Below, piece by piece: positions 10,610 through 46,101 of a stretch of 64,000 nucleotides of DNA (positions are counted from its first letter, which is position 1; the number at the start of each line of letters is the position of its first letter). Both the position numbers and the translations under genes were made by a program. Below the pieces are notes generated by a model. That model was not told where the DNA came from and did no database searches. It saw nothing but the letters and a program-made list of their open reading frames with translations. The stretch spans positions 25,343 through 89,342 of the forward strand of contig JAXMAB010000004.1 of NCBI GenBank assembly GCA_046350655.1, written 5' to 3'. Origin of the DNA: Planctomycetota bacterium (lineage in GTDB: Bacteria; Planctomycetota; PLA2; JAEUHO01).

Positions 10610-11407
10610 TCAGCCGAGGCGGATCCCCGGCCCGAGGACGCCGATGAAGACGGCGGCGGCGACGGCCGCCGCGACGATCCACGGGACCGAGCGGGAGATC
10701 GTCTCCTTCGGCGCCGTCGAGTCGAAGGAGGGGTCGCCGAGCATGCTGGGGCCCCAGACCAGGCCGGACGTGCCGCCGAGCGACGCCGCCGCGCCCGACA
10801 CGACGAGGAGGAACGTGCCGAGGGGGTTGAGGAGCCCGGAGAGGCCGTACAGGAGCGCGCCGGTCACGTACGCCGGGATCGTGAGCCGGAACCCGTCGCG
10901 CGAGCGCGACGCGCCGAGGAACGGCACGAGGCCGCGCATCGCGTGGGTCACGACCCACAGGTAGAGGCCCGCGCCGACGGCCGCCATGCCCCAGCGGAAG
11001 ACCGCGTGCGGGGTCCAGCCGTGGATCACGACCGCCCAGTCGCCGAAGTCGGTGAGGCCCGAGAAGATCAGGTACCCGGTGGCCTGGAGCAGGCTCACGG
11101 TCGCGAACGTCCACCAGAAGAAGCGCGCGACGCCGTGGGCGCGGCGCTCGCGCCACGACGCGAACGCGCCCGCGAGCGCGTTCACGACCGAGCCGCCCGC
11201 GGCGATCGCCTTCACCGCGGCGTCGGAGAGGTCCGACGCGACGCCCTGGTAGTGGAGCGACGACAGCACCTGCGGCTTCCCGCCGACGAGCAGCGCGACG
11301 CCACCGTGCCCGAGGCCCTCGTGCAGCACGTTGTCGAGGGCGTAGGCCACGGTGGCGACGGCGACGACGGTGAGCAGGTCGTGGCGGGCGGGGCCGGTGT
11401 CGGGCAT
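10610..11407 (-). CDS. Integral membrane protein (about 6 TM) carrying an HEGLGH motif. Possibly a membrane metallo-hydrolase.
   Basis: ATG at 11407..11405 (MPDTGPARHDLLTVVAVATVAYAL...). Multiple hydrophobic segments. Confidence 0.5.
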   Translation of the reverse strand: MPDTGPARHDLLTVVAVATVAYALDNVLHEGLGHGGVALLVGGKPQVLSSLHYQGVASDLSDAAVKAIAAGGSVVNALAGAFASWRERRAHGVARFFWWTFATVSLLQATGYLIFSGLTDFGDWAVVIHGWTPHAVFRWGMAAVGAGLYLWVVTHAMRGLVPFLGASRSRDGFRLTIPAYVTGALLYGLSGLLNPLGTFLLVVSGAAASLGGTSGLVWGPSMLGDPSFDSTAPKETISRSVPWIVAAAVAAAVFIGVLGPGIRLG

Positions 11408-11563
11408 GGGGGAATCGTACGGGATGGGGCATCGGCCCTCGCGGGCGCCCTCCCCGGCGCGAGGCGGCCGGCGCGGCACGCTCGGAGGGCGCCGGGCCTC
11501 GCGTGCCGGAGGGGGGATCGGACCCGATCGCCGAGGGAGGGGACGATCGGATACGCTCAGGGG

Positions 11564-12859
11564 ATGCGTGGGACGTGCCTCTTCGTGCTGACGTTGTTCG
11601 CGGGCGGCACGGTCGTGCACGCCGATCCGGGCGAGCTCGACCGTCGTCTCCAGGCCGGCGAGGTCCCGAACGCGCTGCGGAAGAAGGTGCAGCCCTGCGT
11701 GGACCGCGCGGTCGCCTTCCTCGTGGCGCGGCAGGCGAAGGACGGCTCGTTCGAGGAGCACGGCCCGCAGGAGACACCGGCGGCCCGGACGACCGTCACG
11801 TTGTGGGCGGCGCTCGCCCTCCGGCACGCGGGGACGCGCCCCGCGCTGGCCGCGTGCGACCGTGCCGCGGCCTGGCTGTTCGACGGTGGCGCGGCGCGGC
11901 GCGCGGAACTTGAGTCACGCACCGCGGACCTCGGGCTCGCGTTGATGCTCCTCCTGGGTCTTCCGGAGCGACGCGCGCTCGTCCAGCCGCTCGCGACACG
12001 GTTGGTGGAGGCCATCGACCCCGTGACCGGGTTCTGGACGACTCGGACCGCCGCCGCGAAGGACGAGCGGGGCTCGCTCGCAGCGTCCCAGCTCGCGATC
12101 GACGGGCTCGTCGCGGCGCGGGCCGCAGGCGCGACGGTCCCCACGTCGGTCTGGCGCTCGCATGCCCGCGGACTGTTGGCGTCGCGGGACGCCCGCTCGC
12201 GCGCCTGGCCCCTCGTGCTCGGGGCGGCGGCCGCGACCGACGGCACGCTCTTCGCGATCGGGAGCCTCGGCGCGCTGGCCGGGCTTCCGACCGCTCCCGA
12301 AGGTGCCGACGGGATCTCCGAGGTGGACATGTCCCGCGTCCTCCGGGATGCCCACACCGCGATCGGCCGGGATGCCGGACGGGCCCTCGAGAACCCGCTG
12401 GCCCGGTTCTCCGTGATCGACGAGGAGGACGCCCTCGTCATGCCGCAGGGGAAGCCTCCCTTCGGCGTCATCGGCAAGGAGGACGGGACCGAGCGGCAGC
12501 TGTTCGTGGGCGAAGGCGCCTATGTCCGCCTGTTCGCGGTGGTCCGCATGAGCCTCTTCGCGGGTCTCCCCACGGTGGACGCGTACCCGAAGGGCAAGCA
12601 CATCGCGGGGCCCGGTGAGCGGAAGCCGACGCCCGTGCCGTGTTACGCGAGCGCGGCGGGATGGCTGCTCGAGCGCCAGCGACGCGACGGGGGCTTCGCG
12701 TCGGAGGCGAACGACCCGAAGGCCCAGCGGAGCGAGACCGACACCGCCTTGGCGTTGCTGACGCTCACTCGTGCCTTGTCGGCCTACGATCCCGTCACGC
12801 CGGCGCCGATGGACGCGATCCCGCGCCCGGCGCCTCCGCCCGCCGCCGGACCGAAGTAG
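11564..12859 (+). CDS. Secreted protein with prenyltransferase/squalene-oxidase-like (alpha-alpha toroid) repeats.
   Basis: ATG at 11564. Signal MRGTCLFVLTLFAGGTVVHA. Repeated (A)RQAKDGSF / QRRDGGF motifs. Confidence 0.55.
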   Translation: MRGTCLFVLTLFAGGTVVHADPGELDRRLQAGEVPNALRKKVQPCVDRAVAFLVARQAKDGSFEEHGPQETPAARTTVTLWAALALRHAGTRPALAACDRAAAWLFDGGAARRAELESRTADLGLALMLLLGLPERRALVQPLATRLVEAIDPVTGFWTTRTAAAKDERGSLAASQLAIDGLVAARAAGATVPTSVWRSHARGLLASRDARSRAWPLVLGAAAATDGTLFAIGSLGALAGLPTAPEGADGISEVDMSRVLRDAHTAIGRDAGRALENPLARFSVIDEEDALVMPQGKPPFGVIGKEDGTERQLFVGEGAYVRLFAVVRMSLFAGLPTVDAYPKGKHIAGPGERKPTPVPCYASAAGWLLERQRRDGGFASEANDPKAQRSETDTALALLTLTRALSAYDPVTPAPMDAIPRPAPPPAAGPK

Positions 12860-30425: not shown

Positions 30426-31649
30426 CTATTCGAGCACGAGCTCGAGGTCGATCGGCGCGTCTGCGACCGCGACCTTCTTCGCCACTCGCCCCCAGCGCTC
30501 CTTCCCCTTCGCCATCGCGCCGACGGTCCACGTGCCCGGCGTCAGGCGGAGGAGGAACGTGCCGTCCGGGGCGATCTCGACCCGTCGCACCGGGTCGTCG
30601 GGGGAGTCCGACGTGGCGTCGGCCTTCGCGCCGGCGAGGTCGGAGGCCCCGCGAAGCCGTCCACGGATCTCCGCTCCCGCCGACAGACGCAGCGTGACGA
30701 TCGTCTCGGAGGGTGCGACGCCGACGAGCGAGCCCACCCGCGGCTCCGAGCCCCCGAGTTCGCGGAATCGGAGGTCGTACCGCCGGTCCGGCGCGAGGCC
30801 TTCGACGTCCACATCGACGACGTCGGCGCTGCCGCGCCCCGCGAGGTCCGATCCGCCGGAGGCGAGCCGGCCCTTGACGTTCCACGTCAGGTCGGACTTC
30901 GAACGGTTCTCGAGGTGGACGCGAATCCGTTGCGGTCGCGTGTTCACCCGAAAGGTCGCTTCCCGCGCATCGCTTCGGACCTCGGTCCACGCGTCGGGCT
31001 CCAACCGGACGGTCGACCCGCGCGCCGTCGCCTGCACTCGCCGGGTCGTGTTCGGCTCCATGACGAGCTCGAACGTCCCGGAGGCGTCCGCGAGGCCGAG
31101 CCGGTAGGCGCCGGCTCCGTTCGCCTCGACGTGGAACGCCGCCGCGGCCACGGGCGTCGCTCCATCGCTCGCGTCCACCGCGCGCAGGAGGACCGTCGGG
31201 TTCAGTTGGACGGTCACGACGTCGTCGCGGGAGCGCCACGGCGACCGATGAACGCGCGGGAAGGCGGGCGGGGGGTGGTGTCGCGTCCGCGAAACCAGGG
31301 TGTCCATCACGATCGGCGGTCCGGCGACGGGGCTCACCGTCAGCTCGCACTCCAGGTCCCTCGGCAGGTCGACCAGCGTCGCGATCCCGTTGGGCCCGGT
31401 CGTCGCCGAGACGGGACGGGTCATCTCGATCGTGGGCGCGGCAAGCGGCTGGACCCAGAGGTGCGCGCCCGCGACCGGTGCTCCGGTCTGGGACAACACG
31501 CGGACCTCGACGTCCTTCGTCGCGCGCGCCGCGATCTCGCCTCGCCCGCAGGCGCCGAGGCCCGAGGCGAGGACGCAGATCAGGACGACCCGCGACGACG
31601 CGACCCACCACGGCTGTGCGCGCAACGGTCCGTATGACCCCCTGTGCAT
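30426..31649 (-). CDS. Lipoprotein with carboxypeptidase-regulatory-like / Ig-like beta-sandwich repeats.
   Basis: ATG at 31649..31647. Lipobox LASGLGAC. Repeated 'TxxNGxATL' and 'DASGTFEL' motifs. Confidence 0.5.
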   Translation of the reverse strand: MHRGSYGPLRAQPWWVASSRVVLICVLASGLGACGRGEIAARATKDVEVRVLSQTGAPVAGAHLWVQPLAAPTIEMTRPVSATTGPNGIATLVDLPRDLECELTVSPVAGPPIVMDTLVSRTRHHPPPAFPRVHRSPWRSRDDVVTVQLNPTVLLRAVDASDGATPVAAAAFHVEANGAGAYRLGLADASGTFELVMEPNTTRRVQATARGSTVRLEPDAWTEVRSDAREATFRVNTRPQRIRVHLENRSKSDLTWNVKGRLASGGSDLAGRGSADVVDVDVEGLAPDRRYDLRFRELGGSEPRVGSLVGVAPSETIVTLRLSAGAEIRGRLRGASDLAGAKADATSDSPDDPVRRVEIAPDGTFLLRLTPGTWTVGAMAKGKERWGRVAKKVAVADAPIDLELVLE

Positions 31650-31716: not shown

Positions 31717-32148
31717 ATGGGGCCGCCGACGGACCGCGAGGGTGTCCGGATCGAGCGCGCCGACAGGGTACCCCACGCGAAGACCCCCGAGGGGCGGCTC
31801 CTGCGGGACCCGCTCGACGCGTTCGCCGAGTACGAGCGGTCGATGATCCGGGCCCGGACCGTCGCCGCGCTCCGTGCCCGCCGGGAACGGGGCCTTCGGT
31901 TCACGCTCCATCCGCCGTACGGGTGGCGGTTCGTCGGCGGCCGGATGGTCGCGGACCCCGCGCAGCAGAAGACGTTGGTCCGGATGCGGACGTTGCGGTC
32001 GCGCGGCGAGACGTACCGGGCGATCGGGGCGCGGCTGCTGGCCGAAGGGCGCCGTCCCGCCCGGGCCAAGGCGTGGTCGATCGGGATGGTGCGGTCGCTC
32101 GTCCACCGCGCGCCGCCGGATGGTGGCGCCGCCCGCCGGGGGGCATGA
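31717..32148 (+). pseudogene. Serine-recombinase (resolvase / large serine recombinase) fragment. It lacks the catalytic N-terminus and most of the C-terminal domain.
   Basis: AEYERSMIRARTVAALRARRERG...HPPYGWR...YRAIGARLLAEG..WSIGMVRSLVH matches the conserved end of the resolvase domain and the start of the recombinase domain. Only about 144 aa. Confidence 0.55.
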
Positions 32149-32238
32149 CGCCCCCGCGAACTTTGAATCTTCCTTGATCTCGCCCCGCGGGATCGCGGAT
32201 CGGCCGCGCGCAGGAACCCCCGTTCGGACGCGGAAAAT

Positions 32239-32300
32239 GGCGGAGAGGGCGGGATTCGAACCCGCGATACAGTGTTACCCGTATGCCGGCTTAGCAATCT
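32239..32300 (-). repeat. Distal attachment-site repeat: duplicated 3' end of tRNA-Ser. 29 nt identical to 46010-46038, then about 80% identity for roughly another 30 nt.
   Basis: tggcggagagggcgggattcgaacccgcg occurs at both 32239 and 46010. No complementary 5' acceptor strand nearby, so this is not an intact tRNA. Confidence 0.6.
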
Positions 32301-32601
32301 GGCGAGCGTCCTCGCGCCAAGACCGTGTGTTTTCGGGGTTTGGGGCGTCCGCATGCGAGTTAGGGACCTCCTACCTCATGCGGCACAAAGCGCAATAGAG
32401 GCGCAAGCGGACAGCGGAATCCTCGTTTGCTGACGTGGCTGCTGACGCGGAGTGCGGCGGCCCCGTCCCCGTCCCGGGGCGTCGTGGGCGCCTGCCGGGG
32501 CGGTGCGCCGCCTGCGAACGCGCCCGGCGCCGCCGCGTCCGGGGCCCCATCCAGGGGGTGAGCCCGGCGGAGTGGGCCGCGCTGCGGCCCGAGGAGGCGT
32601 A

Positions 32602-33054
32602 ATGGTCGCTCGCACCGAGCTCGGTCGTGTCCGCGTGGAGACGAGGCGCATCGCCGACCTCGTCCCGGCCCCGTACAACCCGCGCCGGATCTCGGACGAC
32701 GCCCTCGCCGGCCTCGGGGAGTCGATCGGGCGCTTCGGCCTCGTCCAGCCCGTGATCGTGAACTCCCGGACCGGGCGGATCGTCGGGGGGCATCAGCGCC
32801 TGAAGGCCCTCGCGGCTCGAGGCGTCGAGGAGACCGACGTCGTCGTCGTGGACCTCCCCGAGGCCGAGGATAAGGCGCTCAACCTCGCGCTCAACTCCCA
32901 GGCGATCTCGGGGGAGTGGACCGCGGACGCGCTCGCCCTCGTGGAGGAGGCCACGTGGCGCGACGCCGCGGGCACGGGGCCCCGCGCGAGACCACGCCGC
33001 GCCCCCTCCTTCGGGAGGGGGCCCTCTACTGGGCCGACAATGGCCGCGTGATCT
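32602..33054 (+). CDS. ParB-N-terminal-domain (ParB/Srx-like nuclease fold) protein. A truncated duplicate of the N-terminus of the ParB-methyltransferase gene at 38154.
   Basis: ATG at 32602 with GAGGAGG RBS. First ~115 aa nearly identical to the product of 38154..39494, then diverges to low complexity. Confidence 0.5.
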
Positions 33055-33389
33055 GCGTGAAGTGCGCCGGCATGTCAGCCCTCTACACCGGCCGCGACAT
33101 CAGCGGCCAGCCCGTCGAGCGCGTCACCGTCGAGGACGTGCGCGCGTGGCCCGAGGACCTCGGGGTCCTCCACTGCGAGTCGAACTGCACCGCGCTCTCG
33201 CCGATCGCGGGCCCCGACGGGTGGCCGATGGCGAAGGCCGCCGTCTGCCCGTGCTGGTGCGAGGGGAAGATCGCCGACCACGACGACCGCGGGTGGGCCC
33301 CGTGGGCCTGCCCGGACTGCGGGGACGACAGCGACACGGATCTCGGGAAGCCGTGCACGGGGTGCGCGAAGGGACCCGACGTCCCATAG
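33048..33389 (+). CDS. Cys-rich (at least 12 Cys) putative zinc-binding protein. It may be the frameshifted C-terminal part of the preceding ParB-like gene.
   Basis: CxxC-type pairs (CVKC, CPCWC, CPDC, CTGC). Start is uncertain: GTG at 33048 or ATG at 33072. Confidence 0.35.
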   Translation: MICVKCAGMSALYTGRDISGQPVERVTVEDVRAWPEDLGVLHCESNCTALSPIAGPDGWPMAKAAVCPCWCEGKIADHDDRGWAPWACPDCGDDSDTDLGKPCTGCAKGPDVP

Positions 33390-34344: not shown

Positions 34345-36015
34345 TCACCAGGTCAGTGGAAACGGCGTGATGGCATTGGCCTTCACGTGGCCGATGATCC
34401 GCGCGCGCTCCTCGCCACCGAGTGACACTACCAGTTCGACGTCCCCTTCGGCGAACGGGCCGAGGATCATCCCGGGCCGCGCGATCGACGCGCTCTCGCC
34501 GTCGCAGTCGTCACTCTCGATGTCGTGTGCGTCTCGTTCGCCAAGCCACGCGCCGTCCGCCCTTCGGATCGTCAGTGTGCCGAGCCCCGGCGTCGGGACG
34601 CGGGGACTCGTCGCCAGGAGGTACCCACCGGGCACGAGAGTGAGCTTCAGGCGACCGCGACTGGGAACCTCTATCGGGCGGCTCACCCACCAGGCTCCCC
34701 ACTCGGCGATCACCCTCGAGCCGGGGCGCACGTCCTCCAGCCGGTTCTCGTGCTCGATGTAGAACCCGAAGTCGTCGGCCCTGCCTGCCGTGGGACCCGT
34801 GACGTGCAGGAACGGAGAGTCAGTGCGGGGGGGCTTGCGAGCGCACTCGACGTCCACCCCGTCCAGGAAGGGCAGGTCGTCGGCGCGAACGGCGATATCG
34901 ATTGGGGGGGCCGCCGTGGGCTCGCCGGTCGCCCCGGGGAGCGTGACCTCGCCGGGGGCGATCCCGTCGCCCCTCCACCTGAGCTTCGCCGGCTTCGCGG
35001 CGGGGACGATCGTCAGCGACCCGGCTTGCGGACTCCCATCCTTCCACTCGAGCGTCCCGTCGAGGTTCATCTCGTCGGGCGTCCCCTCCGCGTAGCGGGT
35101 GACCATGTCCGATCGCCTGAGCCCGGGCGGAACGGAACCGGTGACGGTGAATCGGATCGGGACCTCGATCAGCGGCTCCGGCGCCGGATCTCGGCGGAAG
35201 GTCACGCGTCCGGGAGCCCGCACGACCGCGGGATCGGCTAGCCATCCGGCGCCGAGCCAATGCCCCGACTTCTCTTCGCCCTCGACCTCGAGCCAGAGCC
35301 GGTAGGGCACGCCCTTTGGCAATTCCACATTCCCGGAATGGATCGCGAGCGACCATCGCTCGTCGTTCGGCTCGCCCCGCGCGGGGTAGTAGGAAGGGCG
35401 TGCCTTCGGCTCGCCTTCCTCCTCGGCATAGACCCGAGCCCGAGCGGGGTCGACTCCCGCCACATCCACCGTCACCGAGGCGAGCGCGGGGAGTCGGACC
35501 TCCACGCGCGACGTCCCGCCCGCCGCCACGGGCACGTCGAGCAAGAGCGCACGCGGCTCCTCCTTCCCGGGGAAGACGACGCCGACGTCGTACTTGGCGA
35601 CCGTGGGCACGGGGATCCGCGCGGCCCCGTTCGCGTCGATTTCGGCCTGCGGCCAGTCGGGCATCGTCGTCTCTGACACCCTTCCGACGCGCACCGCGTA
35701 CGCGATTGCGCCGCTTGCGGGCTTCCCGTCGGCCCGGAGCGCAGTCACCTCGATCCACCCCGCTACGTCGCTGCCCTGAGCGGGCTCAGCCGACGTTTGT
35801 GGGGGAGACCCAGCGCGCGCATTGAGGTCGATGTCGTCCCACGTCCAGCCCGGGGTGGCCGCCCATGTCCGGCCGCCGTCGTTCGACACGAAGAGTCCGC
35901 CGTAAGGCGACTGCGCCCGGATCACATCCTGCTGGGCGGGGGGGCAGCACGGACGCGAGCGGCAGCAACCCCCGAAGAGCGTGACGAGCGCAAGCGCCGG
36001 AGCAACGAGCCGCAT
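34345..36015 (-). CDS. Secreted hypothetical protein (556 aa) on the island.
   Basis: Signal MRLVAPALALVTLFGGCC. Balanced beta-rich composition. Confidence 0.55.
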   Translation of the reverse strand: MRLVAPALALVTLFGGCCRSRPCCPPAQQDVIRAQSPYGGLFVSNDGGRTWAATPGWTWDDIDLNARAGSPPQTSAEPAQGSDVAGWIEVTALRADGKPASGAIAYAVRVGRVSETTMPDWPQAEIDANGAARIPVPTVAKYDVGVVFPGKEEPRALLLDVPVAAGGTSRVEVRLPALASVTVDVAGVDPARARVYAEEEGEPKARPSYYPARGEPNDERWSLAIHSGNVELPKGVPYRLWLEVEGEEKSGHWLGAGWLADPAVVRAPGRVTFRRDPAPEPLIEVPIRFTVTGSVPPGLRRSDMVTRYAEGTPDEMNLDGTLEWKDGSPQAGSLTIVPAAKPAKLRWRGDGIAPGEVTLPGATGEPTAAPPIDIAVRADDLPFLDGVDVECARKPPRTDSPFLHVTGPTAGRADDFGFYIEHENRLEDVRPGSRVIAEWGAWWVSRPIEVPSRGRLKLTLVPGGYLLATSPRVPTPGLGTLTIRRADGAWLGERDAHDIESDDCDGESASIARPGMILGPFAEGDVELVVSLGGEERARIIGHVKANAITPFPLTW

Positions 36016-36036: not shown

Positions 36037-37290
36037 CTACTTCCTGCCGTCCACTGGCGACCCGTGCTGCGCCCGTCGCGCGGACCACCATCTCTTCGCT
36101 TCGGCGACGACCTCTGCCCAGTCGCCGCGCGTGACCTTCGCGGTCATCCGCGCCTTGTCCAATGCGTGCCCTGAGATGTCGTCCAGGATGGCGAGAGCGA
36201 CGTCTCGCATTCGATCGACTTGCATCTCTCGATGGAACCGTCCCTGAAACGAGCTTACGTGTCGGACGTACGTGTCGTCGTCGAGTGCCTCGATGAGGTG
36301 CGGAACGGCGGCGTCCCCGAGCGCTCGGAGTCGCTCCGCCGCGGATGTGGGCGAATGACCAGTTACCCTCGCGAGATCCGGATCCATCAGTTCCGCGCCG
36401 CCAGGGACACGCAGCGCGGTAATCAGGTCGGCGACTGTATCGGGGTTCGATCCGCAGCGGGCGCTCACCTCACGGGCCGCGTCACTCGCCTCCCGCGCGA
36501 CGGTGCGGTCGATCAGTGCCGCCGCCTCGACTGCGCGATCGCTCACGTCGGGCCCAGAGGCCCACCTGGCGAACTCACGACGGATGTCGGACCACGTCGC
36601 GCCTGGATCTCCGAGTCGCCCGTTCGCCGCGAGCAGCGCTCCGTAGCGGATCAACTTCTTCCATCGCGAAAGTCTGTCGTCGGAATCGGATGCGCCGTTG
36701 CCTGCCGTCGCCAACGGGAGCAGGGAGAGCGCCTGCCCGCGAAGACCTCGCGCCGCGCAAGCTCGAGCGAGCACGAGGAGACGGTAGGTCGCCTTCTGCC
36801 AATACTCCCGCTCGAAGACGAACGGATCGACGATGCGGTTCTGTGGCTGAGGGCTCGCTAGGAGCGCGACGCCTGCATCGACCGTCGCTGCGAGGTCCGC
36901 GCGCTCGAAGCCAGCGGAGTTGGCGGTCTCGCCACCTCGCGGCTTCTCCCAACTGCGTGTCCAGAGGTCTGTCCCGAGAACGGTGAAGTCGCGATCGGTC
37001 TCCGAAAGCAGAAAGCCCTGATCCCAGCCATCGCCGGGACCGCCAGCGGCCCTTCCCCATCCGGGGCGGTATCGGACGAACGGACTGTCCTTGAGATCTG
37101 GAAGGCCGATCTCATCCCACCACTTGAAGAACGCGGTCGCGTCGTCCTGCAGGGAACGGGTGTCGTCGGCTGCGGAAGCTCCGCCAGCCACCGCGGAGAC
37201 GACGAAGCCCACCGCGAGTAGGAACGCCCGGAGCACCGCGCGGGGAAACGGGCGTTTGTGCTCGAGGTTCAGCACCCTGCGATCGAGCAT
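36037..37290 (-). CDS. Secreted hypothetical protein (417 aa). Immediately upstream of 34345..36015, so likely an operon.
   Basis: ATG at 37290..37288 (MLDRRVLNLEHKRPFPRAVLRAFLLAVGFVVSAVAGGASAADD). Confidence 0.55.
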   Translation of the reverse strand: MLDRRVLNLEHKRPFPRAVLRAFLLAVGFVVSAVAGGASAADDTRSLQDDATAFFKWWDEIGLPDLKDSPFVRYRPGWGRAAGGPGDGWDQGFLLSETDRDFTVLGTDLWTRSWEKPRGGETANSAGFERADLAATVDAGVALLASPQPQNRIVDPFVFEREYWQKATYRLLVLARACAARGLRGQALSLLPLATAGNGASDSDDRLSRWKKLIRYGALLAANGRLGDPGATWSDIRREFARWASGPDVSDRAVEAAALIDRTVAREASDAAREVSARCGSNPDTVADLITALRVPGGAELMDPDLARVTGHSPTSAAERLRALGDAAVPHLIEALDDDTYVRHVSSFQGRFHREMQVDRMRDVALAILDDISGHALDKARMTAKVTRGDWAEVVAEAKRWWSARRAQHGSPVDGRK

Positions 37291-37353: not shown

Positions 37354-38154
37354 ATGCCGTCGAAGCCGCGTTCGCTCGCTGGGATCCTCCACCGCCGTCG
37401 TGCCGCGGACGCGGAGTACAACCGTGCCCGCCGTAGCGATCCCGACCGGGGCGTCGAGGACGCGGTCGTCTCGTCCGCGCGATGGAAGGCGCTGCGCGCG
37501 CGGCTCCTCCGCGACGAACCCCTCTGCCGTGCGTGCGCGGCCGCGGGTCGCACCGAGCTCGCGACGCAGGTAGACCACGTCGTCCCCGTGCGGGCGCGCC
37601 CCGACCTCGCGTACGACCCCGGGAACTGCCAGCCCCTATGCGGGCCCTGCCACGGTGCCAAGACGGCAACGGAGCGGGCGTCCGGGGGGGTGGGGGGGCC
37701 TGCGGACTCTCACGCATCGGCCGCCTACGGCGGGGCGCGGGGCGCGTCGCAATTTTCACGGGTTAGCCCTCCCGCCGTGTCCGCCCCCCCGGATCGCCAT
37801 GGAAGGCCGGCAGATCCGGCCTTGGCGGGCGATCGGGGCGCCCAGGACGCCCCCCAGGGCGCCCCCGCCGCCGCGGACGCCCAAACGCCCGCCAGGCCTC
37901 AGGGACGCGCCCCTACGGGCGATTCGGCGCCTCCCGTGGGCTCTGACGCGAAACCCGCCCTTTCGTGGGGTATCCCCCCGCCTGGAACCCCCCTTTCGGG
38001 GGGTGTCACCCCCCCGGAACGCCCCCTCTCGCCCCGGGACATCGACGCCATGGCGGTCGGCGTGGCCCTCACCCACGGCCTCCCCCTCGAGGCGGTCCGG
38101 TCCCGGATCGAGGCGGCCCTCGCCCGCGGGGAGCGGGTCCTGGAGTTCCCCTGA
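37354..38154 (+). CDS. HNH endonuclease with a long low-complexity linker and a C-terminal helical region.
   Basis: CRAC...DHVVP...NCQPLCGPCH (HNH/zinc-hook signature). Stop TGA overlaps the next gene's ATG. Confidence 0.6.
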   Translation: MPSKPRSLAGILHRRRAADAEYNRARRSDPDRGVEDAVVSSARWKALRARLLRDEPLCRACAAAGRTELATQVDHVVPVRARPDLAYDPGNCQPLCGPCHGAKTATERASGGVGGPADSHASAAYGGARGASQFSRVSPPAVSAPPDRHGRPADPALAGDRGAQDAPQGAPAAADAQTPARPQGRAPTGDSAPPVGSDAKPALSWGIPPPGTPLSGGVTPPERPLSPRDIDAMAVGVALTHGLPLEAVRSRIEAALARGERVLEFP

Positions 38155-39494
38155 TGGCCACCCCCGCCCACCTCGGCCGCGTCCGCGTCGAGACCCGCCG
38201 GGTCGCCGACCTCCTGCCGGCGCCCTACAACCCCCGGCGCATCTCCGACGAGGCGCTCGCGGGGCTGGGGGAGTCCATCGGGAGGTTCGGCCTCGTCCAG
38301 CCCGTGATCGTGAACTCCCGCACGGGGCGGATCGTCGGGGGGCACCAGCGGCTCAAGGTCCTCGCGGCCCGGGGCGTCGAGGAGACCGACGTCGTCGTCG
38401 TGGACCTCCCCGAGGCCGAGGAGAAGGCCCTCAACCTCGCCCTCAACAGCCAGGCGATCTCCGGCGAGTGGACCGAGGGCGCGCTCGCCCTCGTCGAGGA
38501 GGTGGCGAAGTCGCTGCCCGACCTCTCGGCGGCTCTCCGCATGGGCGACCTCGACGAGGCGCTGCGGGACCTCTTCTCCGGCGAGGCGATCGTAGTCGAG
38601 GAGGACGAGGTCCCCGAGCCCCCCGACGACCCGGTGACGAAGCCGGGCGACCTCTGGGTGCTCGGCGACCACCGCCTGCTGTGCGGGGACTCGGGTTCCC
38701 CCGCCGACCTCGACCGGCTCCTCGCCGGCGTCCCCGTCCACCTGCTCAACACCGACCCGCCCTACAACGTGAAGGTCGAGCCGCGCTCGAACAACGCGAT
38801 CGCGGCGGGGCTCTCGTCGTTCCAGGCGCCGCAGACGCGACACCACCAGGCGATGGACCTCGCCCGCCACCCGGGGAAGTCCAAGCCCACGCACAAGAAG
38901 ATGCGGGCGAAGGACCGCCCGCTCGCGAACGACTTCCTGCCCGACGAGGAGTTCGAGAAGCGGCTGCGCGCGTGGTTCGGCAACGCCTCGCGGGTCCTCC
39001 TGCCGGGCCGTGGCTTCTACATCTGGGGCGGGTACGCGAACGTCGCGAACTACCCGCCGGCCTTGAAGGAGGCCGGCTTCTACTTCAGCCAGACCATCAT
39101 CTGGGACAAGCAGCACCCGGTCCTGACGCGGAAGGACTTCATGGGTGCGCACGAGTGGTGCTTCTACGGCTGGAAGGAGGGCGCCGCTCACCAGTTCTTC
39201 GGGCCCGCGAACGTGCCCGACCTCTGGCCGGTGAAGAAGGTGAACCCGCAGTCGATGGTCCACCTCACGGAGAAGCCCGTCGAGCTCGCGGCGCGCGCGA
39301 TCCAGTACTCCTCGCGCGCGGGCGAGAACGTGCTCGACCTCTTTGGCGGCTCGGGCTCGACTCTGATCGCGGCGGAGAAGACCGGCCGACGCGCGTTCCT
39401 GATGGAACTCGACCCGGCGTACTGCGACGTGATCGTCCAGCGCTGGGAGAACGCCGCGGGAAAGAAGTCGGAGCGGGAGGCTACTCGTGCGTAG
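38154..39494 (+). CDS. ParB-N-terminal domain fused to an N6-adenine/N4-cytosine DNA methyltransferase (DPPY motif). Phage-type orphan MTase.
   Basis: ATG at 38154. ParB-like GGHQRLKVLAARG. MTase motif IV NTDPPYN and SAM-binding FGGSGSTLIAAEKTGR. Confidence 0.75.
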   Translation: MATPAHLGRVRVETRRVADLLPAPYNPRRISDEALAGLGESIGRFGLVQPVIVNSRTGRIVGGHQRLKVLAARGVEETDVVVVDLPEAEEKALNLALNSQAISGEWTEGALALVEEVAKSLPDLSAALRMGDLDEALRDLFSGEAIVVEEDEVPEPPDDPVTKPGDLWVLGDHRLLCGDSGSPADLDRLLAGVPVHLLNTDPPYNVKVEPRSNNAIAAGLSSFQAPQTRHHQAMDLARHPGKSKPTHKKMRAKDRPLANDFLPDEEFEKRLRAWFGNASRVLLPGRGFYIWGGYANVANYPPALKEAGFYFSQTIIWDKQHPVLTRKDFMGAHEWCFYGWKEGAAHQFFGPANVPDLWPVKKVNPQSMVHLTEKPVELAARAIQYSSRAGENVLDLFGGSGSTLIAAEKTGRRAFLMELDPAYCDVIVQRWENAAGKKSEREATRA

Positions 39495-39957
39495 CACCGT
39501 CGTCTGGGCCCTCGTCCTGCACCCGCGTCCGAGCGAGGTCCATGCGCGCCTCCTCGATGCTCATCCCCGCAGCGCGGAGGACTTCCCCCGCGATCCCTTC
39601 GTCGCCCAGGAGCCCCAGGAAGACGTGCGCGACATCAATCCGTGGCTCGCGCAAGAGCTGCGCCTCCGCCAGGGATGCCTCCAGCACGCGCTTGACGGAG
39701 GGCGTGACGGGCAGTCCCCCCGGGGAGACCGCTTCGGAGCCGCGGTGCGCTCGCGCGAGGATGGTGTCGCGAATCGTTGCGCCGTCCATCCCCTTGCGGG
39801 CAAGCAGATCCCGGAGGCGCGTGCTCGGGTGCTCCACGCACGCGATCAAGATGTGCTCCGGGGTGACGCAGGGGATGCCCAGCGCTCTGGCGGCATCCAT
39901 CGCTCTGTGCAGGAGACGCGGCCCACCTTGCTCAGGCGCCTTGGACATGGGCCCCAT
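39481..39957 (-). CDS. Clp amino-terminal (Clp_N) domain protein.
   Basis: Two Clp_N-like repeats (PEHILIACVEH..., AHVFLGLLGDEGIAGEVL). Start at 39957 or 39948. Confidence 0.5.
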   Translation of the reverse strand: MGPMSKAPEQGGPRLLHRAMDAARALGIPCVTPEHILIACVEHPSTRLRDLLARKGMDGATIRDTILARAHRGSEAVSPGGLPVTPSVKRVLEASLAEAQLLREPRIDVAHVFLGLLGDEGIAGEVLRAAGMSIEEARMDLARTRVQDEGPDDGATHE

Positions 39958-40006
39958 TCTACGGGTCGACACGGCGGCACCTTCCGGCCCGCGGAGATCG
40001 CCTAAC

Positions 40007-40510
40007 GTGGGCACCCGTGGACCCTCCCCGACGCCGACGCGGCTGCTCCAGCTGCGCGGCTCCTGGCGCGCGAAGCAGCGCGTGAACGAACCCCGGCCCC
40101 GGCGCACGCGTCCGCGGCCGCCGGCGACGCTCGGGGCCGAGGCGAAGAAGGGGTTCCTCTCCCTCGTGCGCCAGCTCTACGCCCAGCACGTCGTCGTGGG
40201 GCTCGACGCCCAGTCGCTCGCGCGCTACGCGGACCTCCTCGTCGACTACTGGAAGGCCGCCGAGTTCGTCGCGAAGCACGGCGCCGTCTACGTCGTGCGG
40301 GGGAAGCCAGCACGGGAGGGCGAGCAGGGCCCCGCGATCGGCTTCCGTCCCTACCCGCAGATGGCGCTCAAGATCGCGCTGGCCTCCGAACTCCTGCGCC
40401 TGGAGCGCGAGTTCGGGCTGACCCCCTCGGCCCGCGCCCGGGTCGAGGTCGAGGCGCCCGTGCCCGCGGAGCCGGCCTTCCACTACTTCGACGCGACGGA
40501 GGTCGGATGA
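40007..40510 (+). CDS. Phage terminase small subunit, P27 family.
   Basis: GTG at 40007. C-terminal LEREFGLTPSARARV matches my recollection of the P27-family signature. Confidence 0.6.
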   Translation: MGTRGPSPTPTRLLQLRGSWRAKQRVNEPRPRRTRPRPPATLGAEAKKGFLSLVRQLYAQHVVVGLDAQSLARYADLLVDYWKAAEFVAKHGAVYVVRGKPAREGEQGPAIGFRPYPQMALKIALASELLRLEREFGLTPSARARVEVEAPVPAEPAFHYFDATEVG

Positions 40511-41044
40511 CCGGGTCCCGCAAGACCCCGGCGCGGGGGGCGAAGGCCCCCGTCGCGGCGTGGAAGGACGCCGCGCTCGAGCGGGTCTGCCGCACGGGGA
40601 TCCCGGGCTACGACCCGTGGGCGGCCGCGGGGGCGGGCCACCGCTTCGACGTCAGGCGCGCCCGTCGCGCGATCGGCTTCTTCCACGACATGCTCGTCTT
40701 CGTCGAGGGCGAGCGCGCGGGGGAGCCGTTCGAGCTCGAGCCCTGGCAGGCGGCGATCGTGGGGAACCTCTTCGGTTGGGTCGAGAGGAAGCCCGGACTT
40801 CCGCTGGTACCCGAAGCAGGGGACCGTCGTCGGCTACGTGAACGGCGTCGCCGCCGGCGTCGCGAGCGTGGACACGGACGCGCGGACGATCACGTTCGCG
40901 GCGGCGCCGGGGGTGGGGGCCACTGTGAAGGCGACCTACCGGGGCCTACGCCTCGTCCGCCTCTCGGATCCGCCCTCGTTCCAGGGCGTCACGAAGCGCT
41001 TCGGGCAGTACGAACTCGCGCTCGAGGAGGTCCTGCGCGACTGA
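40507..41044 (+). pseudogene. Phage terminase large-subunit N-terminal fragment (about 95 aa) joined, out of frame, to the C-terminal tail (about 80 aa) of another phage protein. Deletion scar.
   Basis: FELEPWQAAIVGNLFGW is the conserved terminase-large N-terminal motif. After about 40795 the frame turns to junk, while another frame encodes ...GYVNGVAAGVASVDTDARTITF...GQYELALEEVLRD*. Confidence 0.5.
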
Positions 41045-42581: not shown

Positions 42582-44768
42582 ATGATCCTCCGCTACTCGT
42601 GTCGAGGTCGCCGTCGGTTCACTCTCGGGGCTGCGCGGCGAGACTCAAGATGGGTGGCGGCGATCGCGCTCGCACTCCTGGTGAGCCCCGTATGGGCGGA
42701 GGACCCGCCGGCCGACCCCGAAGTCTCGTCTTACCCGCTCGTGTTCCGGTCCGACGATCGCAAGGATGTGGTTGCCACCACGGTGCTCGACGGCCGAACG
42801 GGCCGCCCAATCCGCGGAGCTATCGTGCGCGGCTACGCCGAGGGTGTGAGCGGCAGGGCGGCGGCCGTGAATGCCCTGGTCTGCTCGCTCACGACGGACG
42901 AACAGGGGATCGCGTCGGCCCGACTCGACACGGAGGCCCTGGGGTGCAGCCACTGGACGGTCACGGCCCCTGGCTATCGACCCTACGCGGAGTTCCATGG
43001 GTACTGGCCCCCAACGCGCGTGCTGCTTAAGCCCGGCACGCCGATGGCGGTCCGAGTTCTGGACGCCATGGGCCGCTCTGTCGTCGATGTAGCCGTCGAA
43101 GGGTACGAGGGCTGCCCGCACGCGCCGGCGGCGGTGCGCGGCCGGACTGACGCGAACGGCATCTTCCGCGTCGAGGACGGCTCTGCCCGGGGATACGAAC
43201 TGTGGGTCGAGGCGGCCGGCTGCGCACGCCGGCCGGAATCGCTCCAGGCCGTGTTCGGCGACACGCCTGACACTTGCCTACTGCGCCCGGGGATCGATGT
43301 GCGGGGGCGTCTAACGGACGTCGACGGCCGACCGATCCACGGCGCGGTCGTCCGTGGCACTGGCTACCCGCGCGGTCCCGCTACGCTGACGGACAGCGAC
43401 GGCCGCTTCGTGCTCTCGGGACTAGGCGTGGAAGATGGGGTCCAGGTCTTCCACCCGACGCTTGCCGTGGAGGGAGAGACGACCCACATGGTCCGTCGCG
43501 TCGCGGCGGACGCGCCGCTCGACCTTGTGTGGACGGTGGAAGGCCTGGCGCTTCCCCCGGCGCGCGGCACTCTCGTCATTGCAGCGCGAGACGGCAAGGG
43601 GGCGCCGGGATCGGGACTCCACCTTCTCGTGATCGGGCGCGACGGTCGGTGCTATCCCGCGGCGACGGACGACAGCGGGGCCGCATCCCTCGAGGTCCCG
43701 TGTGGCGAGGTTCGCGTCCGTGGCGACAGCCCGTTCGACCCGTACGAGGTCGCGGAGACGACCGCTGTCGTGCGCCAGGCGGAGACCTCGCGGGTCGATC
43801 TCGCGTTTACCGCGCGCCCGCGTTTTCAGATCGAGGGCGGCGTGGCGCCCGATGTCGATGCGAGCCTCGCGGCGGCGGGCCGGGTCTACGACGGCGATCT
43901 GCTCCCGACCGACAAGGGTGCGCCCCCGCCAGTCTGGTTGCCCGCGGACGCGCCCGCCGTACTCCGACTGTCTGCCGAGCAGGAGACATCCTGGTCCTTC
44001 CAGGAAGTCGGGCCGGTCGTGGACGGCGTGCGGACCGTGAAGGTGCGGCCGCGGCCTGCCCATCGCGTTCGCATCGCACCGGACGATCGCCTCGACGGCG
44101 CCTGGGTCTTCGTGACCTCGGACGGTGGGTCCGGGGAGGGGCGCCCGTACGATGTCGTCCACGGGGTCATTTCGTTCTTTCGCGGGGGCCGATTCCGAAT
44201 CGTGGTGGATACGGAGGGGGACTCGCCCGCGCGAGTCGTGTCGCTGGAGCTCCCCCCGCTCGCGCAGGGAGCCATCGAACGGTCAGTCGATCTCGCGAAG
44301 GAAGGGCAGATCGACCATCTCAGTGGCACGGCGAGGCTCCTCGTCACGATGGCCGACGGCAAGGCTGTTCCCGAGATGAAAGTCTCGGGCGACAGGTTCT
44401 CAGTGGACGGGGCAGAGTCCCCAGTCGAGGTCTCGGCGCCCGACTCCGTCCTCCTCGCGCCCGTGGGGCTCCAGCCGCTCCAGGTCTTCGTCCCGCGCGC
44501 TGGCGACCAGAAGGTCCTGTTCCCGACCGGAGGCATCGACCTCTCGACGACGGATGCCGCGGGCGCTCCAGTCACGGTTTCCGTCCTGATCGACGGGGTT
44601 GAACACCGCGCCGCTGAGGGACACCTGGCGCTGCGCGGCCTCGCCGCTGGCGCTCACGCAGTGATTGTCCAGCGTGAGTCGTGGCCGCCCCGCGTTCCCG
44701 AGAGTCGCATTTGGCGGTTCACTCTCGCCGACGGCGAGGTGCGGGCGAAAACTCTCCCTCTTCCGTGA
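42582..44768 (+). CDS. Secreted protein with carboxypeptidase-regulatory-like domains (728 aa).
   Basis: Signal WVAAIALALLVSPVWAEDP. Motifs TDANGIFRV and TDSDGRFVLSGL. Confidence 0.55.
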   Translation: MILRYSCRGRRRFTLGAARRDSRWVAAIALALLVSPVWAEDPPADPEVSSYPLVFRSDDRKDVVATTVLDGRTGRPIRGAIVRGYAEGVSGRAAAVNALVCSLTTDEQGIASARLDTEALGCSHWTVTAPGYRPYAEFHGYWPPTRVLLKPGTPMAVRVLDAMGRSVVDVAVEGYEGCPHAPAAVRGRTDANGIFRVEDGSARGYELWVEAAGCARRPESLQAVFGDTPDTCLLRPGIDVRGRLTDVDGRPIHGAVVRGTGYPRGPATLTDSDGRFVLSGLGVEDGVQVFHPTLAVEGETTHMVRRVAADAPLDLVWTVEGLALPPARGTLVIAARDGKGAPGSGLHLLVIGRDGRCYPAATDDSGAASLEVPCGEVRVRGDSPFDPYEVAETTAVVRQAETSRVDLAFTARPRFQIEGGVAPDVDASLAAAGRVYDGDLLPTDKGAPPPVWLPADAPAVLRLSAEQETSWSFQEVGPVVDGVRTVKVRPRPAHRVRIAPDDRLDGAWVFVTSDGGSGEGRPYDVVHGVISFFRGGRFRIVVDTEGDSPARVVSLELPPLAQGAIERSVDLAKEGQIDHLSGTARLLVTMADGKAVPEMKVSGDRFSVDGAESPVEVSAPDSVLLAPVGLQPLQVFVPRAGDQKVLFPTGGIDLSTTDAAGAPVTVSVLIDGVEHRAAEGHLALRGLAAGAHAVIVQRESWPPRVPESRIWRFTLADGEVRAKTLPLP

Positions 44769-44792: not shown

Positions 44793-45895
44793 CTACGCGA
44801 GCACCTTCCCGACCGCGGCCCGCCGCCGTTCCGACGTCGAGTGGGCGTAGCGCATCGTCATGGCGGCCGTCTTGTGGCGCATGAGGTCCTGGACCGTCCG
44901 CAGGTCCACGCCCTTCGCGAGGAGGGCCGTCGCGAAGGAGTGCCGCAGTGTGTGCCAGCCGATCGCGGGGAAGTCCCGATCGCCGGCGTCCCAGTCCGCC
45001 CGGGCGCGGACGAGCGCCTCGCGCTTCCTCGTGCAGCCGCTCGCGGGGTCGGCCAGGTACTTCGCGACGCGGAGCTTCAGGTGGACGCGCCGGCAGAAGC
45101 GGTGGAGCCCCGTGTAGGCGGCGCGGATGTGGGGCCCGAGGCGGACGACGGGGCCGGCCACGACCCGGTGGCGCTTCAGGATCTCCATGAGCGGGGGGCT
45201 GATCTCGAGCTTCGCGTCCCGGTGCGTCTTCGTGGCCCGCACGAGCAGCACCTGGCGGTCCCAGTCGATGTCCGAGGTCTGCAGGCCGTAGAACTCGGCG
45301 CGGCGAAGGCCGGCGAGCGCGGCGAGCGCCACCGGGGGCTCCCACTTCGTGCCGCGGACCGCCTCGAGGAGGAGGGCGACCTGCTCGGGCTCAAGGTGCT
45401 TGGGCTCCTCCTGCTGGATCGTCGGGCAACGGAAGTCGCCGACGAAGTCGGGGCAGGCGACCCCGCTCCCCTCGGCGCCGGCCCAGCGGATGAACCGGCG
45501 GCACTCGCCGACGAACATCTGGATCGACCGGGGGCCCCAGCCGTGTGGTCCGCCACGTAGCGGACGAAGAGCGCCCGGGTCCACTGGTGCATCGGTGTGG
45601 AGGCCCATGCTCCGAAGAGCGGCTCGAGCCTGGCGCGGCACATCTCGATCGTGGCCGGCCGGGCCCCGAGACGCTTCTCGTCGAGGTAGGTGTCGAGAGC
45701 GTCCGTGGCGCTCTTGAGCGCCGGGTTGTTGTGGCGCGCGCCGTGAGAGCGTTCGAAGGCGCGCAGGTAGGTCTTCGCGATCGCCTCGTTGTCGGTCTTG
45801 AGTCCCTTGCTGTGGACGTTCCCGAGCTCGTCGCGCCACTGCAGGTAGGCGAGACGCTGGCCCTTGAGCGTCTCGCGCCATCGGATCCAGGCCAT
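44793..45895 (-). pseudogene. Tyrosine integrase (phage-integrase family), frameshifted near 45535 in a G/C homopolymer run.
   Basis: N-terminal arm/SAM-like part in one frame (MAWIRWRETLKGQRLAYLQW...). Catalytic domain (R..HxLRHSFAT..LMRH...Y) in another frame. About 115 bp from tRNA-Ser. Confidence 0.65.
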
Positions 45896-46009
45896 GTAAG
45901 GCTCCTCTGCTGACGTGGATTTGCTGACGTGGGCCCTTGAGAGCCCTTGTAGCGCGCATGGGGGACGCCCCGGGAAGCCGCGTAAGTCCGCGGCACATCG
46001 GGGTTTGTA

Positions 46010-46101
<92 letters not shown>

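Follow-up and report, generated by a model that had tools for sequence, protein, structure and literature searches.

The HNH, ParB_N–methyltransferase and Clp_N genes examined here most probably (probability of about 0.85) form the upstream part of a late operon for DNA packaging. The operon would be that of a temperate HK97-like phage, now defective, which lies at tRNA-Ser in a Planctomycetota chromosome; the element includes a Clp_N moron, a deletion from the large terminase (TerL) to a tail gene, and a ParB_N scrap of a second phage. The window, i.e. the whole stretch of DNA analyzed, covers 64,000 nucleotides (Table 1). The domain calls of the initial annotation were right: an HNH domain (PF01844), a ParB_N domain (PF02195) joined to an N6_N4_Mtase domain (PF01555) with a DPPY motif, and a convergent Clp_N domain (PF02861). 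The locus could be explained because the small terminase (TerS) and the truncated TerL lie directly downstream, past position 39957, where that annotation ended. We propose that the HNH and ParB-methylase genes be annotated as phage packaging-region genes rather than as a novel module for defence or restriction.

Table 1. Features of the island, with coordinates in the window
Feature	Coordinates	Strand	Remarks
Degenerate copy of the tRNA-Ser 3' ~66 nt	32237..32302	-	Left attachment-site repeat
orf55, 5'-truncated small Cys-containing ORF	32435..32602	+	Homologue of the L003 ORF between HNH and ParB-MTase
Truncated ParB_N-only ORF (copy A, ParB_N'), 149 aa	32602..33051	+	PF02195 E 6.9e-9; phrog_620, phrog_498
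Cys-rich ORF, 11 Cys	32955..33389	+	GTG start at 32955 inferred; small phage-/island-associated family
HNH endonuclease, terminase-associated	37354..38154	+	266-aa ORF; PF01844 E 4.6e-8
ParB_N + N6_N4 DNA methyltransferase (ParB-MTase)	38154..39494	+	Beta-class N6-adenine type; gene intact
Stand-alone Clp_N-domain protein, 155 aa	39481..39948	-	PF02861 E 3.3e-12, two stretches
Small terminase (TerS), P27 family	40007..40510	+	PF05119 E 5.6e-14; phrog_83; GTG start inferred from L003/L089 alignment
Large terminase (TerL), first ~98 codons only	40507..40800	+	phrog_10517, phrog_9; rest deleted
Phage tail-family gene, C-terminal fragment (DUF2460)	40796..41044	+	19 homologues; far end of deletion
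Tyrosine integrase	44793..45895	-	Adjoins tRNA; spread over two reading frames
tRNA-Ser (GCT)	46010..46099	-	Integration target and right island border; ARAGORN; Rfam RF00005 62 bits

The packaging region and its deletion

The HNH protein has three parts: a ~160-aa core, a linker of low complexity, and a conserved C-terminal tail of ~45 aa. PF01844 spans residues 58–105, and the translation contains the CRAC and CGPC pairs and the DH…N…H motif. The best PHROG match was phrog_589 (E 6e-26), and the matched families (phrog_589/144/2323) place the protein in the terminase-associated packaging class. It is 58–64% identical to the HNH proteins of the related loci L003, L011, and L084. This long ORF recurs in the viral contig L089, unbroken up to the methylase junction; the C-terminal tail had no homologue among the genome loci and was found only in this contig. 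The HNH and methylase genes meet at TGATG with a 1-nt overlap; the ATGA coupling reported for this junction is instead found between TerS and TerL (40507–40510).

TerS and the TerL fragment are located within 1.9 kb downstream of the HNH gene. An HNH gene beside the terminase genes was also found in L003, L011, L089, L126, L127, L166, and L168. Across the relatives, it tracks TerS/TerL and not the methylase: the order is MTase–HNH–TerS–TerL in L126, L127, L166, and L168, and HNH–orf–MTase–TerS–TerL in L003. HNH genes that adjoin cos sites and terminases are described in PMC3592412. With HK97 gp74-type HNH proteins, the window protein shares the small core, the H-N-H motif, the two CxxC pairs, and a gene position near a P27-type small and an HK97-type large terminase. 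It differs from them in a C-terminal extension of ~105 aa, conserved in L089, and in that the methylase gene separates HNH from TerS. Homology and synteny suggest that it may act as a small accessory nuclease, aiding the terminase in cohesive-end cutting.

The TerS protein scored 43.6 bits with TIGR01558, slightly below the cut-off of 45.6 bits; it is 54% identical to the L003 TerS (from 40001) and 80% to that of L089. The TerL fragment is 77–80% identical to the N-terminal ends of TerL in L003 and in L011, where the protein has 559 aa. Position 40800 is the last with this homology, and a change of coding frame is seen at about 40730–40800. The fragment that follows is related to a 141-aa homologue (P0228) carrying PF09343. 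Searches with the portal and capsid proteins of L003 and L011 (tblastn) yielded no homology anywhere in the window. A deletion that took TerL from codon ~98 through the end of a tail gene, and that came after the Clp_N insertion, would account for this arrangement.

The intact relatives display the expected continuation. L003 has the order HNH – small ORF – ParB-MTase – TerS – TerL (ATPase and nuclease) – portal – HK97-type capsid – connector – tail completion. The series HNH – ParB-MTase – TerS – TerL – portal – capsid is common to L003, L089, and L011, all of them lacking Clp_N, and in L089 the long HNH ORF, TGATG, MTase, TerS, TerL, and portal follow one another. In Clostridium phage CWou-2020b, the order is HNH – ParB-MTase – HNH – … – P27 TerS – TerL.

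The island extends from tRNA-Ser to a repeat of its 3' part, about 13.7–13.8 kb. The left attachment copy was seen as two direct repeats (D6 and D9), matching 46009–46072 at 95% and 86%, and its alignment with tRNA-Ser extends from the 3' end as far as the anticodon arm. Neither ARAGORN nor Rfam called the left repeat as a tRNA, and the tRNA was the sole match in the Rfam scan of 30–48 kb. The element thus has attachment repeats at a tRNA and an integrase, which is frameshifted, and it lacks the full set of terminase, portal, capsid, and tail genes that a functional prophage carries. The N- and C-terminal parts of the integrase are in separate ORFs (C-terminal part: PF00589, E 1.5e-21), due to either a true frameshift or an assembly error. 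The source is a metagenome-assembled genome, so misassembly might in principle account for this frameshift and for the deletion junctions.

The methylase fusion and the Clp_N gene

In the ParB-MTase, the ParB_N domain was recognized by PF02195 (E 5e-7, 30.1 bits versus a cut-off of 26.3). This domain is of the NTP-binding fold, and its translation shows GGHQR, with the conserved box-II arginine, at residues 62–66. The catalytic domain matched PF01555 with 98.2 bits (E 8.7e-28). DPPY occupies residues 201–204 (38754–38765), and the SAM motif DLFGGSGST residues 395–403, with FGGSG at 397–401 (about 39336–39362). Motif IV precedes motif I, and both align to the corresponding motifs of CcrM. The nearest solved structures are CcrM and Spo0J. 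phrog_498 covered residues 9–441 (E 3.4e-110), and the protein is 86% identical to its L003 counterpart over 446 aa.

The ParB_N–N6_N4 methylase fusion is already known in the literature; phages and prophages are enriched for fusions of a ParB-CTPase with an N6N4 MTase (PMC12704722). The family is large, with 772 GenBank phage records, 436 genome loci, and 456 IMG/VR loci; in 290 of the phage records, the match spans 80% or more of the query. The window gene shares with the phage fusions (PHROG 498; PF02195 and PF01555) the two-domain order, the beta-class arrangement of DPPY motif IV before the FxGxG motif I, and the late-region position just upstream of the terminase genes. The proteins of cultured phages, e.g. 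the 'DNA modification methylase' of CWou-2020b and that of Bacillus phage vB_BtS_B83, are 35–39% identical to it over 95–98% of the length. In contrast to these, the window gene sits in a defective prophage and belongs to a Planctomycetota-centred clade, in which the MTase domains are 70–88% identical. Members of this clade occur very frequently among Planctomycetota prophages and viral contigs, for which the clade could be a handy marker.

Among solved structures, the catalytic region was matched best by CcrM (PDB 6pbd), a beta-class N6-adenine MTase, with the DPPY and SAM motifs aligned. The window protein is nevertheless distinct from CcrM: it scored 59.5 bits against the equivalog cut-off of 830, far below it; its ParB_N domain is N-terminal, whereas CcrM has a C-terminal domain; and it is phage-borne, whereas CcrM is a core cell-cycle gene. 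The enzyme is probably a phage 'orphan' beta-class N6-adenine methylase that would mark phage DNA, and host DNA too in the lysogen, most likely for escape from restriction. The ParB-type nucleotide-binding domain may help it to load on or find DNA. An epigenetic or anti-restriction role of the methylase, as suggested earlier, fits the role inferred for phage ParB-MTase fusions (PMC12704722).

The Clp_N gene is convergent with the methylase gene, and its stop overlaps the methylase 3' end by 14 nt. It is absent from the related phages L003, L089, and L011. In L003 and L089, the MTase and TerS genes abut directly, and L011 has a different insert there. Because these intact relatives are without it, Clp_N appears to be an unrelated moron, acquired as a ~510-bp insertion at the MTase/TerS junction. 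It would be a cargo gene, dropped in opposite orientation between methylase and terminase. Phage morons have the same traits: a single oppositely oriented gene with lower G+C (0.69 in 39–40 kb), at a junction that is empty in some relatives (L003 and L089) and holds another gene in a further one (L011). A tblastn search against 50,697 phage records yielded no match to Clp_N. The word-indexed protein search found two close homologues only, the nearest of which (P0076) is flanked by non-phage genes. An exhaustive search returned 8792 distant relatives, mostly multi-repeat proteins, which were uninformative on function. The protein is not of the Clp/Hsp100 (ClpA/B/C) kind, as its 155 aa contain only Clp_N repeats and no AAA+ modules after them, and the ClpB model gave 24 bits where its cut-off is 1232.

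The second ParB_N segment and alternative readings

The 5' part of copy A (32602–32952) aligns with the start of the ParB-MTase gene (copy B, 38154–38504), in register, without gaps, and far beyond chance; the homology stops at about 32952. PGAP annotates copy A as a 'ParB N-terminal domain-containing protein' (MFO0931130.1). The initial annotation had described a near-identical internal duplication. The segment is real, but the identity is 85.5% (300/351 nt; 89% at the aa level), with dS = 0.47, dN/dS = 0.16, and mostly synonymous differences. Third codon positions account for 36 of the 51 differences, which indicates a gene that stayed functional over a long evolutionary time until it was truncated. 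Upstream, orf55 is joined to the ParB_N' start by a TAATG overlap. It is 53% identical (tblastn) to positions 4300–4440 of L003, which are directly upstream of the L003 ParB-MTase; the L003 ORF has two CxxC...CxxC units and orf55 has one. In comparison with L003, the orf55 and ParB_N' pieces have each lost both ends.

Copy A could have arisen if the beginning of the resident ParB-MTase gene was duplicated in situ and the copy then diverged. The two copies share strand and island, with 5.5 kb between them, and the best aa match of copy A is copy B (89%, compared with 78% to L003). We consider this origin improbable, as copy B is no closer to copy A than to phages from other samples: its synonymous distance is 0.34 to L003 and 0.47 to L089, both from other metagenomes, the latter equal to that between the copies. 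The neighborhoods differ as well, since copy A has the L003-type small ORF upstream, whereas the element of copy B lacks it and has the extended HNH tail seen in L089. The preponderance of third-position changes also speaks against it. Judged from these comparisons, copy A did not arise by recent duplication in place but is what remains, in diverged form, of a second, related phage. The initial annotation was right that recombination shaped the island; the 'duplication' would be the wreckage of another phage, an ordinary finding of little import beyond annotation. Copy A and its upstream ORF may have come to lie beside the first gene of the island, the Cys-rich ORF, through a deletion or through illegitimate recombination. 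Their source could be tandem lysogeny followed by two deletions, or a recombination patch, and there is no unique reconstruction. A third attachment copy, which would prove tandem lysogeny, was sought with 12-nt seeds and was not found. The island would illustrate tandem or successive lysogens decaying into chimeric junctions.

The function of the locus also admits other readings. Restriction enzymes of the HNH type exist, and the HNH and MTase genes are translationally coupled through the TGATG overlap, so that a restriction-modification (R-M) or defence module can be envisaged, with HNH as the restriction enzyme and ParB_N and Clp_N as accessories. The PADLOC MTase_II model PDLC03229 matches the methylase with E 4e-97. 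On the eight island proteins, however, PADLOC recognized no defence system, only generic MTase_II/oMTase models and weak matches of HNH to the candidate family PDC-M01B (E about 1e-4). The HNH domain is a ~110-aa catalytic core without a recognition domain, and matches phage packaging families. Its place relative to the methylase shifts among the relatives, with a separate ORF between the two in L003, whereas the TerS/TerL adjacency is constant. A type II R-M system would be expected to keep an endonuclease partner with its methylase, and no such conserved partner was found; Clp_N is not conserved with HNH and the methylase either. This reading is highly improbable, and the proposed three-gene functional module dissolves, since HNH tracks the terminase and Clp_N is missing from the related phages.

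It is also unlikely, though less so, that the island is a domesticated remnant, in which the host keeps the intact ParB-MTase, perhaps with the 149-aa ParB_N' and Clp_N, for epigenetic regulation or the exclusion of related phages. The element has kept intact ORFs for the methylase, HNH, and TerS and is otherwise gutted, with TerL, the integrase, and the genes for head and tail missing or disrupted; this could reflect selection for a host-level function instead of simple decay. The GC3 of the methylase (0.92–1.0) resembles that of host genes, and ParB_N' is an open ORF annotated as a protein. The intact genes, however, may merely reflect a recent deletion, and the dN/dS values of 0.2–0.25 mostly record within-phage evolution. 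A second genome with the same remnant was not found, and the two-sided truncation of orf55 and ParB_N' also counts against retention. A more specific version is a long shot: the ParB-methylase would serve as a host orphan m6A epigenetic enzyme or superinfection barrier, and ParB_N' and/or Clp_N would modulate it or disturb the homologous methylase of incoming related phages. The defective late operon of a temperate phage remains our preferred reading.

The Cys-rich ORF

The ORF that follows the truncated ParB_N does exist; it encodes 11 Cys, and not 12 as first counted. Its family comprises 70 homologues with a conserved 91-aa core, and 21 loci were found in IMG/VR. In the relatives, the gene has its own ATG, and what lies upstream of it differs: L086 and L087 have a DUF2924-like gene there, L084 has a divergent regulator region, and L083 a tRNA. 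We considered a ParB_N–Cys-rich fusion broken by a frameshift, and rejected it as the Cys-rich homologues start independently. By these comparisons, the ORF represents an independent phage-associated gene family. AF2 predicted residues 20–95 with pLDDT >90, and Foldseek found no match for the predicted fold in PDB or BFVD. With a confident predicted fold that is matchless in both collections, this small family is a modest lead.

Packaging genes of a defective prophage

The HNH, ParB_N–N6_N4_Mtase and convergent Clp_N genes proposed in the initial annotation were confirmed by the ORF listing and by Pfam. Two terminase genes, which it had not covered, lie directly downstream of Clp_N. The window belongs, by exact sequence match, to a 1.17-Mb contig of a Planctomycetota MAG. 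The island that carries these genes is 13.7 kb long, and its G+C content is slightly below that of the window (~75%). A direct-repeat search found no third att copy.

Features of the island and its borders
Feature	Position	Domain or profile match	Remarks
Degenerate copy of the tRNA 3' 66 nt	32237-32302		Left border
Cys-rich ORF	32955-33389		11 Cys; in-frame GTG at 32955 is a possible start
HNH protein (266-aa ORF)	37354-38154	PF01844, E 4.6e-8	
ParB_N + N6_N4_Mtase	38154-39494	PF02195; PF01555, E 8.7e-28	
Clp_N protein	39481-39948	Two PF02861 stretches, E 3.3e-12	Convergent to methylase
P27-family small terminase (TerS)	GTG 40007	PF05119, E 5.6e-14; phrog_83	Downstream of Clp_N
Large terminase N-terminus (TerL')		phrog_10517, phrog_9	Coupled to TerS by an ATGA overlap
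Tyrosine integrase	Adjoins tRNA-Ser	PF00589	Split over two frames
tRNA-Ser(GCT)	46010-46099		Right border

The methylase (PGAP: 'site-specific DNA-methyltransferase', MFO0931136.1) possesses its catalytic motifs. In the alignment with CcrM, its nearest solved structure, DPPY (residues 201–204) and DLFGGSGST (395–403) fall on motifs IV and I; the Spo0J/ParB N-domain aligns to the N-terminal part. As a beta-class DPPY enzyme, it is most likely of the N6-adenine type. The junction with the HNH gene, previously read as ATGA, is TGATG, a one-base overlap. The HNH ORF ends in an extension of ~105 aa (37680–38151), in which a low-complexity linker leads to a conserved tail of ~45 aa ('…LTHGLPLEAVRSRIEAALARGERVLEFP'). 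This extension is uninterrupted and conserved in the viral contig L089 (1–417) and is missing from the relative loci L003, L011 and L084. The TerS start was set by comparison with relatives; TIGR01558 scored 43.6 bits on this protein, slightly below the cut-off.

Relatives of the methylase numbered 436 when one genome per species was scanned, mostly in Planctomycetota MAGs, and 456 in IMG/VR; it also matched 772 GenBank phage records (290 at full length). The three closest relatives are L003, L089 and L011. In L003, an intact relative from a Planctomycetota MAG (86% identical at the protein level), the order is HNH–small CxxC ORF–ParB-MTase–TerS–TerL–portal–HK97-type capsid–connector–tail completion, and the 559-aa TerL has ATPase and nuclease domains. 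L089 has the same extended HNH ORF up to the TGATG junction, followed by ParB-MTase, TerS, TerL and portal, and L011 is arranged similarly. The cultured Clostridium phage CWou-2020b has HNH–ParB-type methylase–HNH–…–P27 TerS–TerL, and the more distant viral contigs L126, L127, L166 and L168 have MTase–HNH–TerS–TerL. This variable order argues that the HNH gene accompanies the terminase genes and not the methylase gene. The association agrees with PMC3592412, according to which many phages carry an HNH endonuclease gene beside the cos site and terminase genes. Fusions of a ParB-CTPase fold with an N6_N4 methyltransferase have been described as typical of phages, with enrichment in prophages and a suggested anti-defence role (PMC12704722).

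The Clp_N gene (PGAP: 'Clp protease N-terminal domain-containing protein', MFO0931137.1) lies on the minus strand within a 512-bp segment (39495–40006) between methylase and TerS. At the same junction, only a few bases separate the methylase and TerS genes in L003 and L089, and L011 has a different plus-strand ORF of ~130 aa (about 11340–11720); the junction is a slot for cargo genes. Clp_N had zero matches among GenBank phages. Outside this genome it has a single close homologue, P0076 (74% identity), flanked on one side by a patatin-like gene and on the other by an unrelated gene; an exhaustive search returned thousands of distant, often multi-repeat Clp_N proteins. The junctions lacking Clp_N and the non-phage context of its homologue argue for an independently acquired cargo gene, not a module partner of HNH and methylase.

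TerL homology to L003 and L011 (77–80% identity) ends at 40800, at about codon 98, and the coding frame switches at ~40730–40800. The coding piece that follows, up to 41044, corresponds to the C-terminus of a protein family whose longer member matches the phage tail family PF09343/DUF2460. The ORF translations of L003 and L011, portal and capsid among them, had no further match anywhere in the window. The TerL breakpoint and the adjoining DUF2460-family C-terminus indicate a deletion that took the head genes and most tail genes. The remnant is incapable of packaging.

The second ParB segment and the Cys-rich ORF

Positions 32602–32952 (copy A; PGAP: 'ParB N-terminal domain-containing protein', MFO0931130.1) align without gaps to 38154–38504 at the start of the methylase gene (copy B). 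The duplicate reported earlier therefore exists, but at 85.5% identity (300/351) it is not near-identical. Third codon positions account for 36 of the 51 differences, with dS 0.47 and dN/dS 0.16 (Nei–Gojobori); judged from sequence, the copies diverged under purifying selection. Over the same 117 codons, dS between copy B and L003 is 0.34, and between copy B and L089 0.47, so the distance between the two copies is like that between phages of separate samples. Upstream of copy A, and joined to it by a TAATG overlap, is orf55 (32435–32602, 55 codons). This ORF is 53% homologous to that directly upstream of ParB-MTase in L003 and keeps one of its two CxxC units, whereas the element of copy B has the L089-type HNH tail in this place. 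The divergence and the L003-type upstream ORF argue that the orf55–ParB_N pair comes from a different, L003-like phage, as a scrap of ~520 bp with both ends missing. The initial annotation is partly confirmed; reading the locus as a novel HNH/ParB-MTase/Clp_N module that contains an internal duplication does not hold up.

Deletions in a tandem lysogen may have left the scrap behind; alternatively, it may be a patch introduced by recombination. Rearrangements recur in this element family, as indicated by a comparable chimeric junction in the viral contig L172 (99–431, 601–810, 4802–5032). There, the 62 N-terminal residues of HNH are joined in frame to the Cys-rich gene, midway along it. The same contig has half a Cys-rich gene behind an orf55-like CxxC ORF and two copies of a neighbouring gene of ~103 aa, which suggests recurrent rearrangement between tandem related elements.

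The Cys-rich ORF, formerly credited with 12 Cys, has 70 homologues with a common conserved 91-aa core containing four conserved Cys. In a subgroup, to which the window's copy belongs, a Cys-rich extension follows at the C-terminus. Relatives of the ORF have their own ATG a few codons ahead of the conserved 'RPLLREGALYW', and their upstream neighbours vary: a DUF2924-like gene (L086, L087), a divergent regulator region (L084) or a tRNA (L083). DUF2924-like genes are typical partners of serine recombinases. The own start and the differing neighbours exclude a continuation of ParB in a shifted frame and mark a separate family. This family occurs on planctomycete prophage-like islands and IMG/VR contigs (L083–L087, L169–L189), usually at the att-proximal end; in L011, L084 and the window, the ORF lies at this end, 4–5.5 kb upstream of HNH. 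The AlphaFold (AF2) model has pLDDT >90 for residues 20–95, and Foldseek returned zero matches to it in PDB or BFVD.

Proposed function and other genes of the island

In the intact phage, TerS would recognise the DNA of the phage, and the cohesive ends would be made by TerL together with HNH as an accessory nuclease. The methylase would modify phage DNA before packaging, most plausibly evading host restriction, and its ParB-type NTP-binding domain would probably assist DNA engagement. The intact methylase of the remnant may still methylate the host chromosome. Only by this route would the remnant be domesticated, a more interesting reading that we consider improbable. We regard the locus as the packaging region of a defective prophage, ordinary in kind and already annotated, with a methylase of common phage type.

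The ParB-MTase clade is very abundant and conserved in Planctomycetota (loci L003–L082, L089–L168), often with several copies per MAG. Its MTase domains are 67–88% identical across Phycisphaerae and Planctomycetia MAGs; the ParB_N domain is far more divergent (~30–40% identity).

Just outside the left tRNA-fragment border, a serine recombinase fragment (31729–32145, +) retains the last third of the Resolvase domain only, which hints at another decayed mobile element. Three large secreted/lipoprotein genes lie inside or beside the island: 30429–31580 (−) and 42582–44768 (+), both with confirmed CarboxypepD_reg domains, and 34345–36015 (−), for which no Pfam match was found. Because the related islands L084 and L086 have similar genes, the three may represent recurrent cargo of such elements. 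Immediately upstream of HNH, on the other strand, 36037–37290 (−) is the stretch of the island with the lowest G+C (0.67). It encodes a secreted protein of ~417 aa that weakly matches the HEAT_PBS repeat; as the long ORF runs into the start of HNH, translation probably begins near 37290.
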